Below are positions 57,066 to 62,230 of a DNA stretch of 64,000 nt, piece by piece. The notes under the pieces are model-generated. The model worked only from the letters and a program-made list of their open reading frames with translations. It ran no database searches and was not told where the DNA came from. Position 1 is the first letter of the stretch. Every line of letters begins with the position of its first letter. This stretch comes from Candidatus Acidiferrales bacterium (GTDB lineage Bacteria > Acidobacteriota > Terriglobia > Acidiferrales > UBA7541): the NCBI GenBank assembly GCA_035307965.1, contig DATGHO010000038.1:9904-73903 (forward strand), in the 5' to 3' direction. Made by a program: the position numbers and the translations under genes.

Positions 57066-57069
57066 AATG

Positions 57070-57194
57070 AGTGTCCGGAAACGGACGTTTGCTCGAAAAA
57101 AATGTCGAAAAAACTCGATTAGAATTGGCATCGACCGTTTGTTTTCAATGAGTTGGCTCAATTTCTAATTTCCCATAGAAACTCGATTAGAATT
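57070..57194 (+). repeat. 125-nt intergenic element, copy B
   Basis: It shares 105/125 identities with 19524..19648 in the same orientation. It starts 4 nt after the plsC stop. Confidence 0.85.
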
Positions 57195-57214
57195 CCTTTC
57201 CGTAAGAGTCATAA

Positions 57215-57234
57215 GGGCCAAAAGTGGCCCTTTT
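57215..57234 (+). terminator. Rho-independent terminator candidate (plus strand)
   Basis: The structure is GGGCCA-aaag-TGGCCC followed by TTTT. Confidence 0.55.
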
Positions 57235-57243
57235 GCCGTCCAT

Positions 57244-57270
57244 AAAATGCAAAAGCCGCCCGAGGCGGCC
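57244..57270 (-). terminator. Rho-independent terminator candidate (minus strand)
   Basis: On the minus strand the structure is GGCCGCC-tcg-GGCGGC followed by TTTTGCATTTTA. The nearest upstream minus-strand CDS ends about 450 nt away. Confidence 0.5.
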
Positions 57271-57722
57271 TTGCGGTTCTGCTGCGCCGAATTGTCTGGC
57301 TGGCCCTCCAGCCGAGGACTCATGTATACCGGGGAGTTAACTAAAAGTCAAGGAAAAATCGGGGAAGCGGGCAGGCCAATTCTGAAATTTTGGGCAAAAC
57401 GACCAGGTCATTCCTGTGGACGTTCCACAGGGGCCAGAAATGGCACTCTCGAAGGCAGTTGCAAGTGACCGGGAGACAGTGGTCAGTGGTCAGAAAAGGC
57501 GAGTACATCGCGCACAAGGCGGCGCGATGAGGAAGGAATACTTCGGGACAGAACATTATGTCGCGGTTAAAACCGCGACCCACAAGGCGCGGCTCGCCAC
57601 AAGGAGGCGCCGACAGGGAACAGAACGAACGGCGACGCTCGTTGCGGGGAGCTGAAGCTCAGCCTTCCTAGAAAAGCCGCAGAGTTGCAAGAGGCGCGCC
57701 TCGGCGCGAACTCTCCGGCCAC

Positions 57723-58076
57723 TTAGCACCCGCCCCCAAGCAGATTCTTGATAAGGCTTGCTAGCGCTATCTTCAGCGCCTCAAGAGTAAGCGCGCCCGT
57801 CTTCTGAATGACGATTTCTTTCGCTTTAATCCACAACTTATCGTTGCGAGCCGAGTCTAGAAACTAGTGACCTTCGTAGGTGAGCCGAAGTACATGGAAA
57901 TCTGGTGAACCGGGTGCAAATTTTGCCTCGATGAGTCCGGCGTCTCGCGCCTGCAGAGCGTTGTAATACAGTTCCTCTGGGTTGCGGTGCGGTATTTTGA
58001 CTTGACAGCCTTCGAGGGATGGCGATTTCTCGACCTCTAAGAGGATCTCGCGGATTAGGTCCATGTCGCGTTTCAT
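57723..58076 (-). pseudogene. DUF2513-like protein interrupted by an in-frame TAG (codon 71 of 117)
   Basis: The product reads MKRDMDLIREILLEVEKS...LRLTYEGH-TAG-FLDSARNDKLWIKAKEIV...LIKNLLGGGC. The stop sits where relatives, as I recall them, have Glu (EGHEFLD). Confidence 0.6.
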
Positions 58077-58096
58077 GCGGCTTTCCTCATGTCGTC

Positions 58097-59773
58097 TCAG
58101 CGGCGGCGTTTTGTACGTCGGCGGGGCTTGCGGCGTTCCTCGGGTGGAACTCCCAAGACGAACTGTTCGGGTTGCGGGGTTTCGGCGCGGGGAGCGCGGC
58201 GGAAGGTGACGTTGCTCATGTGCGGGTAGTCGATGCCTTTGCCTTCGAGAAGTTCGGCGATAGTGAGAATTTGCAGGCGTGGGTAGTGCAGGTCTTCAGA
58301 GCCGCGTTTGCCCCAGGGCGATTTGTAGATTCCGGCAGCGGCGGCTTCGGTGCGCATGGGTTTGGTGGCGTCTTCGAGGGTGATGAGGACGCTGATTTCG
58401 GCTTTTTCGCGTTCGATGACGCCGCGCAGATCGCGGACATGCGTGACGTTGACGTGGCCGGATTTCACGGAGAGGATAATTTGTTTGGTCGCGCCGCCTT
58501 CGCCCTCGTCGTGAAAGTAAAGGCGGCCATCGATGCCCTGATCGCTGCCTTTGCGCTGCTCGGCTCGGCGCGCGCCGACAAGGCCGAGCGCCCACCATTG
58601 AAATTGGTACGGATCGTCTTTGGCGAGTTGTTCGGCATCGGGAAGCGCGGTTGGCTCGCCGATGACTTTGTAGGTTTCCTTCACGGCCTCGCCGAATGCG
58701 TCGCGAAGACGGCTCTTGATGAGGCCGATGGCGAGATGCGTGATGTCTATGCCGATCCAGTTGCGATTGAGGCGCTGCGCGACGGCGATGGTTGTGCCGC
58801 AGCCGCAGAACGGGTCGAGAACCGTGTCGCCTTCGTTGCTACTCGATTTGATTATGCGTTCGAGTAGGGTTTCGGGCTTCTGAGTTGGATAGCCGAGCCG
58901 TTCTTGGGCGCGAGAGTTTATTGGGTCAATGTCCGTCCAGACGTTTCCCATTAGCACGCCGGCCATTTTGTCCAAGTATCTTTTCAATCGTGGCCGCTTT
59001 TTTTTCGAGTCCGGGTACCAGATTAGGCCATCTGCGTCGAGTTGGGCCATCGTTTCGCGCGAGTAGCGCCATCCGAATGGCGGCGGTGCATGCCCCTTCC
59101 ATGTGTACGTCATGTTTGGTCTCGGCTTCGGACTGGTCATGTTATCTAAGGTGTAGCGTCTCCCATCTGGATCGCGAAACCGGTATTTATCCTCGATATA
59201 TTCATCGCTGTGAGGCAGGTGTTGTGGATTCCAGGTGAAGCCTTCCGTTTTCGAATAGTGAAGCAGGACATCAGCGACCGGACTCCACCGCTTTGCGTCG
59301 CTGTGCGTTCCCGTACGTCTCCAAGTAATGTCGGCCCTAAAATTCTCCGGTCTGAAAATAGCGTCCATGAGCAGCTTCAAATAGTGGCTGGCCGTGGGAT
59401 CGCAGTGCAGGTAGATGCTGCCGGTGGATTTTAGGGCGCGATGAAGTTCGACGAGGCGCGGGGCCATCATGGTGAGATAGGCGAGCATGTCGTTGGTGCC
59501 GAGGAAGCGGCGGAACGCTTGCATGACGTCGGAGACGCGACCGGCGCGTTCGACGATTTCTTCGTACATGCCGGCGGAGAGCGTGTTCCATTCCCAGGTG
59601 TCTTCGAAGGCTTTGAATTGGGCGGCGGCGCCGGTGCCGTCCTTTTCGGCGAAGAGGACGTTGTAATCCTGATTGCTCTTGAAGGGCGGATCGAGATAGA
59701 CGAGATCGACGGATTCGTCTTTGATGTAACGGCGGAGAACGTCGAGGTTGTCGCCGTAATAGAGTTGGTTCAT
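58097..59773 (-). CDS. Beta-class DNA methyltransferase (N6-adenine type predicted) fused to a C-terminal Mrr-like PD-(D/E)xK-fold domain
   Basis: Motif IV is LDPPF near the N-terminus. [14 protein letters not shown] and motif I ([11 protein letters not shown]) lie about 285 aa later. The C-terminus reads [13 protein letters not shown]...[21 protein letters not shown]...VLITLED. Confidence 0.85.
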
Positions 59774-59917
59774 GTTTTGACCGCGCTCACCGCGCGTGGA
59801 GCGGATTATATAGAAAAAATGGAGATGTGCGACTGGTGATTAGTGGCGAATTGAGCAACGAATACTTTGCGCGGGTGTAGCGCGCAAAAGGAAGGGATCA
59901 TTTGTGGCTGCGTTTTC

Positions 59918-60310
59918 GGCACGGCTGAAGCCGTGCCCTTACGAAAGCGAGGCGTTTCGTGGTGCGCGAGGCGGAACGCGACTCTGGGGAGTCGCGCGGG
60001 CGCGGCAAGCCAGCGCCCCTACGAAGGCCACGGCAGGTTCCTCGTCCGACTGCGAAGGGCAAAAGCCGCAGATTCGCAGGAGGCGCCCCGACAAAGGGCG
60101 CCGAGGGCAAGCGATTCTGCGCTACAACGGCAAAGACACACAGCCGTGCGAAACACCGGAAGGTTGGGAAGGCAGAAACAAGCAGCTGGGCGAAGCAACG
60201 CTGGTGATCGGGCGCGTCAGGTGGCAAAGCGGCGTCGAGTTCCGGCTGCGCAGGAGTCGGCGAGGCGGACCGCCGCACTCCAAAAATGCGCAGGCTAACG
60301 CTTGCGGGCG
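59918..60310. repeat. Mosaic block of REP-like modules upstream of higB
   Basis: The block contains the GGCACGGCtgaaGCCGTGCC hairpin. It also holds R3 (59966..60026), the R1 5' flank (60032..60044), R2 (60061..60126) and the ggcaaagcggcgtcgagttccggctgcgc module (60223..60251). A gctaacgcttgc 12-mer lies at 60294..60305. Confidence 0.75.
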
Positions 60311-60328
60311 TGTGACCTATAAGTTACA

Positions 60329-60667
60329 ATGCAGAACGTGATCGAGGTTCGCCACTATGTCACACGCGCTGGAAAGGACGTGTTTGATGAGTGGCTCTCC
60401 GAACTTCATGACGCTCGCACACAGGCTAAGATTGCAGCTCGAATCAACCGTCTTGCTTGTGGGAACTTTGGCGACTGCAAGGCGCTGCGCCGCGGTTTGT
60501 GCGAGTTGCGAATCGATTGGGGGCCTGGGTATCGAGTCTATTACGCGATTGTAGGCAGGGTTTGCGTATTGCTGCTCTGCGGAGGCGACAAGCGAAGGCA
60601 GTCGTCTGACATAGACCGCGCGTTAGCGTACCTCGAAGACTATCGCGAAAGGACTGGAAGCAAATGA
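60329..60667 (+). CDS. higB: Type II toxin-antitoxin toxin, RelE/ParE superfamily (HigB-like addiction module killer)
   Basis: The protein is 112 aa. The segment ...FGDCKALRRGLCELRIDWGPGYRVYYAIVGRVCVLLLCGGDKRRQSSDI is typical. A 4-nt overlap joins it to the antitoxin. Confidence 0.85.
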   Translation: MQNVIEVRHYVTRAGKDVFDEWLSELHDARTQAKIAARINRLACGNFGDCKALRRGLCELRIDWGPGYRVYYAIVGRVCVLLLCGGDKRRQSSDIDRALAYLEDYRERTGSK

Positions 60668-60963
60668 AACGTAAAATCAGCGAATCCCACCACGAAGCCA
60701 TAGTTCGGCGGCTCAAAAAAGACCCGGAATTTGCCGCCGAGTACCTCAGAGCAACGTTGGAAGATGAAAACGAGCCGCGCGTTCTGCTGATTGCCTTGCG
60801 GCAGCTCGCCGAGGCGCAAGGCATCGCCAAAGTGGCAAGGGCGGCTGGCATCCAGCGGGAGAGCCTCTATCGAGCGCTGTCGCCGCGAGGGAACCCGCGT
60901 CTATCTACATTGGTCGCGGTCACGAAGGCAATCGGACTGAAGCTTACGGTCGAAGCAGCTTAG
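60664..60963 (+). CDS. higA: Addiction-module antidote protein (HigA-family HTH antitoxin)
   Basis: The protein is 99 aa. The motifs DPEFAAEYL and the HTH segment GIAKVARAAGIQRESLYRALSPRGNPRLSTL are present. Confidence 0.85.
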   Translation: MKRKISESHHEAIVRRLKKDPEFAAEYLRATLEDENEPRVLLIALRQLAEAQGIAKVARAAGIQRESLYRALSPRGNPRLSTLVAVTKAIGLKLTVEAA

Positions 60964-61011
60964 CCATCCGCCGTTCTAGAAGCTAGAGGTTGGAAGCTGG
61001 AGGCTGGAAAA

Positions 61012-61204
61012 CCGAGCGCAGCTTCAGAACAAGTTTTGCGCTACAAGGGCAAAGCGGCGTCGAGCTCCGGCTGCGCCGGAAGCCGCGAGGCGGAACGCGA
61101 CTCTGGGGTTCGCGCGGGCGCGGCAAGCCAGCGCCCCTACGAAGACAACACAAGTGCCTCGTCGTCCCGATGAAAGTAATCGGGACTCGCTCGGAATGAC
61201 AACG
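61012..61204. repeat. Mosaic block of REP-like modules downstream of higA
   Basis: It contains the R2 3' end (..ttttgcgctaca), ggcaaagcggcgtcgagctccggctgcgc (61048..61077), R3 (61085..61144) and R1 with a GTCCCGAT/ATCGGGAC hairpin (61151..61203). Confidence 0.75.
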
Positions 61205-62230
61205 CTAACGCTTGCCCGTGCGGAGGCGGGCTAGTTCTTTTTCCAGGGCGCGGATGGCGGATTGCAGTTCGGGGAGGCGGCGGTAGACGCCGGTAGCGCG
61301 CAGCCAAATTTTGTTTTCGAAGGCGGGCGAGCCGGAATAGACCGCGCCTTCCGGCACGTCGTGCGAAACGGCGCTTTGCGCGGTCAGCACGGCGCCATCG
61401 CCAATATGAAGGTGTCCCGCTGCGGCGGACTGTCCCGCCATAATGACGCGATTGCCGATGATGGAAGAGCCGGCGAGGCCCACTTGGCCGCACAGCAGCG
61501 TGTCTTCGCCGACTTTGCAGGCGTGCCCGACCTGCACGAGATTGTCAATTTTCGCGCCGCGAGCGATGCGCGTTTCGCCGACGGTGGCGCGATCGATGGC
61601 GCTGTTGGCCTGAATCTCGACGTCGTCTTCGATCACTGTGACGCCGGCCTGCTGCATTTTGTGCCAGCGGCCATTTTTTTCGCGCGCGAAGCCGAAGCCG
61701 TCGCTGCCGATGACCACGCCATTTTGCAGAATCACGCGATTGCCGACGCGGCAATGTTCACGGACGGCGACGTGGCTATGCGCGAAAAAATCGTCGCCGA
61801 TGCGCGCGCCGCGATAAATGGTGACAAAACTGTGCAGCACGGCGCGGCTGCCGATGGTGACGTCATCGTCTATAAAGCAAAACGGCCCGATGTGCGCGTC
61901 CGGCGGCACTACGGCCGTTTTTGCGATCACAGCGCTCGGATGAATGCCGGGTTCATAGCGCGGCGGCTGGTAGAAAAGTTCAATGGCGTAGGCAAACGCG
62001 AGATAAGGATCGTCGGCGCGCAGCATGGGCAGGGGAATGCCTTCCTCTTTGTGGTTGACGATGATGGCGGAGGCGCGCGTCTTGTTGGCGTCGGCGCGAT
62101 AGCGGCGATTCGAGAGAAAGGTGAGCTGGCCGGGCTGCGCGTCCTCGATTCCCGCGACGCCGGTAATCTCGACATTCGCGTCGCCATCAATTTCGCATTT
62201 CAGCCGCGCGGCAACTTCTTGAAGTTTCAT
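61205..62230 (-). CDS. lpxD: UDP-3-O-(3-hydroxyacyl)glucosamine N-acyltransferase
   Basis: The N-terminus is MKLQEVAARL...ITGVAGIEDAQPGQLTFLSN. Left-handed beta-helix hexapeptide repeats follow. GGAGG precedes the ATG at 62230. Confidence 0.9.
   Translation of the reverse strand: MKLQEVAARLKCEIDGDANVEITGVAGIEDAQPGQLTFLSNRRYRADANKTRASAIIVNHKEEGIPLPMLRADDPYLAFAYAIELFYQPPRYEPGIHPSAVIAKTAVVPPDAHIGPFCFIDDDVTIGSRAVLHSFVTIYRGARIGDDFFAHSHVAVREHCRVGNRVILQNGVVIGSDGFGFAREKNGRWHKMQQAGVTVIEDDVEIQANSAIDRATVGETRIARGAKIDNLVQVGHACKVGEDTLLCGQVGLAGSSIIGNRVIMAGQSAAAGHLHIGDGAVLTAQSAVSHDVPEGAVYSGSPAFENKIWLRATGVYRRLPELQSAIRALEKELARLRTGKR

Follow-up and report, generated by a model that had tools for sequence, protein, structure and literature searches.

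Here we describe a gene, P0001, in a 64,000-nucleotide stretch of contig DATGHO010000038.1 from a Candidatus Acidiferrales bacterium (the whole stretch is called the window below), and our preferred reading, to which we give about an even chance, is that the gene constitutes a one-protein restriction-modification-like unit with a variant, possibly weakened nuclease site. The open reading frame, called and translated from the window, lies at 58097-59773 on the minus strand and encodes 558 amino acids, joining a Mod-type methyltransferase to a C-terminal domain with the fold of the Mrr clan. We favor this reading because the gene is solitary in all loci examined, is spread patchily over islands, prophages and plasmids, carries a shuffled recognition domain, retains a conserved C-terminal domain with two aspartates and a lysine in the site, and has a sister clade ending in an HNH domain. 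The relevant features are as follows.

58097..59773, minus strand: the whole gene P0001, a Mod-type methyltransferase of 558 amino acids with a C-terminal Mrr-fold domain (open reading frame; PF01555, PF22722 and PF04471 matches)
59681..59692, minus strand: motif IV, DPPF, residues 28-31, a catalytic motif of the N6-adenine type, invariant in 78 of 78 family members
58910..59293, minus strand: target-recognition domain, residues ~161-288, a shuffled cassette (identity profile; DNA alignments break here)
58790..58816, minus strand: motif I, DPFCGCGTT, residues 320-328, the S-adenosylmethionine-binding loop, invariant in the family alignment
58229..58651, minus strand: C-terminal PD-(D/E)xK (Mrr-clan) domain, residues 375-515 (Pfam, AlphaFold2 model, fold match, hhalign to E. 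coli Mrr)
58598..58600, minus strand: Q392, aligned with the helix glutamate of Mrr (F-E); Q in 107 and E in 18 of 128 representatives
58529..58543, minus strand: D411-x-G-I-D415, equivalent to GDGGIDG of Mrr, both aspartates kept (D411 in 143 of 148 and D415 in 146 of 149 representatives)
58463..58471, minus strand: S435-V-K437, aligned with Q-A-K of Mrr; S in 120 and Q in 29 of 150 representatives, K in 147 of 150
58100..58228, minus strand: basic disordered tail, residues 516-558, poorly conserved (predicted local distance difference test, pLDDT, below 50; mean identity 37%)

The methyltransferase portion is covered by PF01555 (N6_N4_Mtase) over residues 22-346, with an E-value of 5.8e-44 and 151.1 bits against a Pfam cut-off of 26.7, and YPTQKP is found at residues 295-300. 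Since motif IV is N-terminal to motif I, with the recognition domain as a long insert between the two, the order of motifs is that of the beta class. By sequence and by fold alike, the closest solved proteins are the type III Mod subunits of H. pylori (6k0w) and EcoP15I (4zcf), followed by M.MboIIA, CcrM and M.RsrI, and the PADLOC models of type III methylases also match. The DPPF motif and the closest solved relatives, namely the adenine Mods, M.MboIIA and CcrM, favor N6-adenine as the probable target base. A scan for promoters and terminators gave no signal above chance. Elsewhere in the same genome PF01555 has five more matches, one of them a fragment (C9:49229-49864, C3:174294-174935, C32:57175-57942, C1:3121-3828 and C13:109719-109907), and no second Mrr_cat domain was found there.

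The C-terminal domain, residues ~375-515, exceeds the cut-off of two Pfam families, PF22722 (NA-iREase1; 33.8 bits against 27) and PF04471 (Mrr_cat; 31.9 bits against 21). An AlphaFold2 model of this domain alone, generated with 66 relatives, displays the topology helix-strand-strand-strand-helix-strand at a mean pLDDT of 89, and its top fold match in the PDB is the nuclease domain of MspJI (E 2.6e-3, template modelling score 0.57-0.59), with RNA polymerase subunit chains (Rpb5), BamHI and Ecl18kI next; a PDB sequence search with the profile of the domain yielded no meaningful match. Site residues were mapped by hhalign profile alignment to E. coli Mrr, which places F-E of Mrr on F391-Q392, GDGGIDG on S-D411-Q-G-I-D415-G, and V-Q-A-K on L-S435-V-K437. 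The E, D, D, Q-x-K site of Mrr hence reads Q392, D411, D415, S435 and K437, the E and the Q being changed and D, D and K kept. A sequence-only reading of the window had already described a 558-residue protein with DPPF at ~28, YPTQKP and DPFCGCGTT, a beta-class enzyme that probably modifies N6 of adenine, and an Mrr-type PD-(D/E)xK domain at the C-terminus with SVK at the (E/Q)xK position; all of this is borne out by the searches above, which add the minus strand and the replacement of the helix glutamate.

A search of 1.8 billion cluster representatives with the C-terminal domain gave 2802 matches, the best 150 of which are mostly fragments of the same family. To assess how the site behaves across the family, counts were taken from 150 cluster representatives of this domain (50% identity clusters), about 97-98% of which retain D411, D415 and K437. 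Positions 392 and 435 vary, with Q/S in 86 representatives, Q/Q in 21, E/S in 10 and the canonical E/Q in 8, the mixed states (Q/Q and E/S) thus amounting to 31. S435 goes together with H421, which is present in 89 of 120 representatives with S435 and 6 of 29 with Q435 (a raw count that ignores kinship), and an exchange of glutamine for serine needs two base changes. In a tree of the domain, the states are interspersed with 27 changes, of which well-supported branches force at least four for the Q/S state, the tree itself being poorly resolved. As D411, D415 and K437 are near-invariant while 392 and 435 vary, the alignments indicate a nuclease site that is altered and not decayed, a pattern that does not settle activity. 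The domain as a whole is moreover about as conserved as the methylase core among 78 full-length members, with mean pairwise identities of 67% and 69-76%, respectively.

The recognition domain behaves differently, with a mean pairwise identity of 38% over residues 161-288 in the same 78 members, and identity in the core is nearly uncorrelated with identity in this domain (r=0.11). The pair L033/L038 has cores that are 95% identical and recognition domains that share 34%; conversely, the window protein and L007 are 80% identical in the recognition domain and 73% in the core. Nucleotide alignments to L001, L008 and L004 are interrupted precisely across the segment encoding the recognition domain. 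From these alignments we conclude that the recognition domain undergoes cassette exchange of specificity, as is seen in type III mod alleles, type I S subunits and type IIG enzymes.

Further information on the C-terminal position comes from a paralogue in a genome of the same order, which is 43% identical over the methylase core and ends in an HNH domain that is intact, with two CxxC pairs and the D-H...N...N residues. This architecture represents a large family in its own right, the best 120 matches all combining PF01555 with HNH, and the genes are solitary in the three loci examined. Because the sister clade carries an intact HNH domain in the same place, this methylase lineage, judged by these domain assignments, has a nuclease slot at its C-terminus. 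Among modification-dependent nucleases, too, HNH is known to take the position of an Mrr-like domain (PMC12707154). In three of four loci the methylase-HNH genes adjoin IS1595-family transposase genes or remnants thereof (L091 201-1181; L141 8034-8468; L142 8248-10350), and they may be passenger genes. Two related methylases, at L092 688-2697 and L090 1-1509 (both minus strand), are 36-44% identical over residues 2-356 and have other C-terminal regions without a Pfam match, ~270 amino acids long in L092 and cut by the contig end in L090.

The architecture is common, not unusual. At least 8000 homologues are present in a clustered protein collection, and the best 120 all have the same domain set at 66-92% identity; among contigs from one genome per species, 579 stretches encode a relative at 57-82% identity, from Acidobacteriota, Planctomycetota, Chloroflexota, Gemmatimonadota, Actinomycetota, Bacillota and other phyla. 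The design is accordingly routine in databases under the name 'DNA methyltransferase', and no characterised or studied member was found in the literature on methylase-Mrr-like or methylase-HNH fusions, a survey that did not cover REBASE. Full-length relatives occur in temperate Streptomyces phages and on plasmids, conjugative ones among them; the plasmid examples include pMLa of Mesorhizobium japonicum MAFF 303099 (WP_044552088) and one from Microbacterium amylolyticum. Many copies form single-gene chromosomal islets amid housekeeping genes. In phage RedBear (L085 2021-5608), gp49 is 55% identical, has the E392/S435 state and is one small gene away from the serine integrase gene, a position typical of prophage-expressed accessory genes. 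Within the genus, a full-length copy is found in two of 24 other genomes, and a decayed copy in one more. Broken copies of the family were also encountered, one at L062 8001-9614 with a premature stop at residue 493, in the C-terminal part, and one at G004:C10:51308-53061 in three decayed pieces with a TGA inside.

The surroundings of the gene in the window are defined by two further features.

57066..61204, no strand assigned: insertion of 4.1 kb between plsC and lpxD, containing the DUF2513 pseudogene, the methylase, repeat blocks and a HigB-like/antidote pair
57723..58076, minus strand: DUF2513 gene, starting 21 nucleotides after the methylase stop and interrupted at 57864-57866 by an in-frame TAG; its pairing with the methylase is not conserved

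The spacing between plsC and lpxD is 58-890 nucleotides in five genomes of the same genus, as compared to 4.1 kb here, and the two of these five that possess the methylase carry it on other contigs. Because few genomes of the genus have the gene, because these have it at other loci, and because it sits here in an insertion between plsC and lpxD, the gene is accessory and mobile, not a core regulator. The HigB-like/antidote pair at 60329-60963 is flanked by co-oriented mosaic repeats at 59965-60305 and 61034-61215, which share five modules of 21-51 nucleotides that are 81-100% identical, and a perfect 16-nucleotide direct repeat, AAACTCGATTAGAATT, occurs at 57111 and 57179. Non-coding DNA at 57094-57190 and 57240-57366 matches, at 89% identity, a stretch that lies downstream of the methylase-DUF2513 pair in L001/L002, and ~165 nucleotides upstream of the methylase are likewise common to L001, L002 and L008. 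As flanking non-coding DNA is shared in this manner, the alignments suggest that the mobile unit is larger than the methylase gene itself.

To search for partner genes, neighbors were surveyed in 85 loci using crude open reading frame calls and all-against-all BLAST clustering, and 50 close same-strand neighbors were compared to Pfam. No family recurs in more than ~4 of the 85 loci, and the neighbors are heterogeneous, including lumazine synthase, DnaG, RNase P, TIR, HepT and a helix-turn-helix/ImmA pair. In the window, no Res helicase, nuclease or specificity gene is next to the methylase, and in the 85 loci no Res helicase or restriction nuclease gene adjoins it, the whole genome not having been searched for Res. 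The sequence-only reading was thus right in reporting no partner endonuclease, and also in naming an interrupted DUF2513 gene, repeat blocks and a HigB-like/antidote pair as the neighbors. With no Res-like gene beside any of the 85 loci, being solitary is the native state of the gene.

Taken together, the methylase and its recognition domain would recognise a short DNA sequence and modify its copies in the host, and through the same recognition domain the C-terminal domain would reach sites that lie unmarked on incoming DNA and cut or nick them. As one recognition domain would serve both the methylase and the nuclease fold, it could be swapped and the specificity changed without self-killing, and the single-gene design would let the unit persist and spread alone. 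Considering the Q392/S435 variant, cleavage by the C-terminal domain may be weak, single-stranded or lost. More tentatively, and with somewhat under an even chance in our estimate, the family and its HNH sister may form an undescribed class of compact restriction-modification enzymes of ~480-560 amino acids, combining a Mod-like beta-class methylase with a C-terminal nuclease and no helicase, the commonest form of which would have the Mrr site remodelled to D-D-(H421)-S-K and still cleave or nick unmethylated sites.

Several observations weigh against a one-protein restriction-modification-like unit and lend themselves to another explanation, in which the protein would be an orphan methylase with a nuclease-dead Mrr fold, kept for DNA binding or dimerisation in a manner analogous to the non-specific DNA-binding C-terminal domain of CcrM. 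Phages, plasmids and islets would then pre-methylate their DNA against host restriction, with the recognition domain diversifying to match restriction systems. Two of the five Mrr site residues are replaced (E by Q392 and Q by S435), here and in most of the family, and a change of E to Q is classically inactivating. Among stand-alone Mrr-type proteins from this phylum, which are 28-74% identical to E. coli Mrr, 21 of 22 strictly keep E-D-D-Q-K, so the helix glutamate and glutamine positions are constrained in true Mrr and Q392/S435 is a real departure. The Mrr_cat score of 31.9 bits is also low compared to 88-135 for stand-alone Mrr, the carriage of a lone 'methyltransferase' by Streptomyces phages and plasmids would also fit a purely protective methylase, and conservation of the C-terminal domain shows that it has a function, not that it is catalytic. 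On the other hand, the near-invariance of D411, D415 and K437 is unexpected in a plain binding module, where acidic residues would be of no help to DNA binding; the clade contains both canonical and mixed forms of the site; its sister clade fills the same slot with an intact HNH; and a non-addictive methylase has no obvious way to persist in the many single-gene chromosomal islets. We also considered the NA-iREase1 match as proof of inactivity and rejected it, since that model gives active E. coli Mrr a higher score, 40.9 bits, and also matches the 22 stand-alone Mrr-type proteins; the match is therefore not diagnostic. The NACHT/STAND NTPase link expected of NA-iREase1 was not recovered either, with no NTPase domain in the protein by Pfam and none recurring among the neighbors. 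A nuclease-dead domain is the main rival, somewhat less likely in our estimate than the one-protein unit, and the earlier proposal that this region binds rather than cuts is not established, even if the departure from E-D-D-Q-K stands. Modification-dependent cutting, also proposed from the letters, has no basis, as Pfam detects no Mrr_N, SRA or other reader of modified DNA in the protein, whereas E. coli Mrr does show Mrr_N.

The remaining explanations turn on genomic context. A two-gene module, with the winged-helix-like DUF2513 protein as controller or partner, would agree with the start of that gene on the same strand 21 nucleotides past the methylase stop, with the presence of the same pair in L001/L002 (74% and 73% identity) and with the upstream and downstream non-coding segments shared with these loci. 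The pair is however found elsewhere only in this one lineage, DUF2513 being absent from the other ~80 loci including that of a 91%-identical methylase copy in G024, and here the TAG replaces a glutamate of the intact L001 gene (YEGHEFLD; copies 73% identical), with the frame running 46 codons further. Since DUF2513 is interrupted, the methylase does not depend on it, and we rejected it as a partner; a module of this kind is improbable. A core epigenetic regulator of the Dam/CcrM kind (the sequence-only reading had suggested an epigenetic regulator) would be consistent with a solitary gene and a protein highly conserved outside the recognition domain, but with only ~3 of 24 genomes of the genus carrying it at different loci, a recognition domain that is shuffled rather than conserved, and an insertion shared with a toxin-antitoxin pair, it is more improbable still. 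Least credible of all is a type III Mod with its Res subunit encoded elsewhere or lost, despite type III Mods being the top sequence and fold matches and the PADLOC models agreeing, because no Res-like gene adjoins any of the 85 loci (a Res search of the genome itself was not made) and the extra C-terminal domain is foreign to known Mod subunits.

If the C-terminal domain cuts, the proposed one-protein unit would belong to a kind of restriction-modification enzyme that is both very small and very abundant. Its methylase type, the Mod-type beta class, has so far been known to restrict only with a helicase subunit, as in type III systems. The naturally swapped recognition cassettes would then be a source of new DNA specificities, and the family would hinder gene transfer in soil phyla in a way not recognised before. 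If the domain is dead, the family would be a clear example from nature of strong selection keeping a nuclease fold in a methylase for a non-catalytic role. In both cases, thousands of entries labelled only 'DNA methyltransferase' would gain a function.

Compared to known systems, the protein resembles the type III Mods of EcoP15I (4zcf) and H. pylori (6k0w) in its beta-class motif order and in the recognition domain placed between motifs IV and I. Movement of recognition domains between alleles is on record for H. pylori and for Neisseria mod genes, partly in PMC3983042. Unlike type III systems, the family lacks a Res partner in every locus examined and has the extra Mrr-fold domain, and it displays no phase-variation repeat, as far as can be seen without a systematic test. 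It also departs from Dam and CcrM, having neither conserved presence nor conserved specificity across the genus, with the recognition domain at 38% mean identity. With the Mrr clan, exemplified by E. coli Mrr and MspJI (PDB 4f0p), it shares the fold, the aligned GxDxGIDG and lysine, and an Mrr_cat score above cut-off; in contrast to E. coli Mrr, the helix glutamate is a glutamine, the glutamine of QxK is a serine, and no Mrr_N or SRA reader is present.

Among enzymes of type IIC/IIG, such as MmeI, BpuSI and Eco57I, the methylase is of the gamma class, the PD-x-ExK nuclease is N-terminal, and the protein is about twice as long. The present family is similar to these in uniting methylase, recognition domain and nuclease fold in one polypeptide encoded by a solitary gene, but differs in its beta-class methylase, C-terminal nuclease fold, Q-D-D-S-K site and roughly half size. 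That type IIC/IIG specificity changes with the recognition domain is stated in two reports (PMC2731913, PMC3185434), congruent with the cassette exchange seen here. A single temperate-phage protein that restricts other phages is also on record in mycobacteriophage Panchino gp28 (PMC7542560), which is described with type I-like restriction, modification and specificity domains and is akin to the present family by description only. The nearest comparison is the HNH sister clade, which has 43% core identity, is likewise widespread and, in the three loci examined, solitary, and holds a nuclease-type domain in the same slot, an HNH with intact motif residues there and an Mrr fold here.

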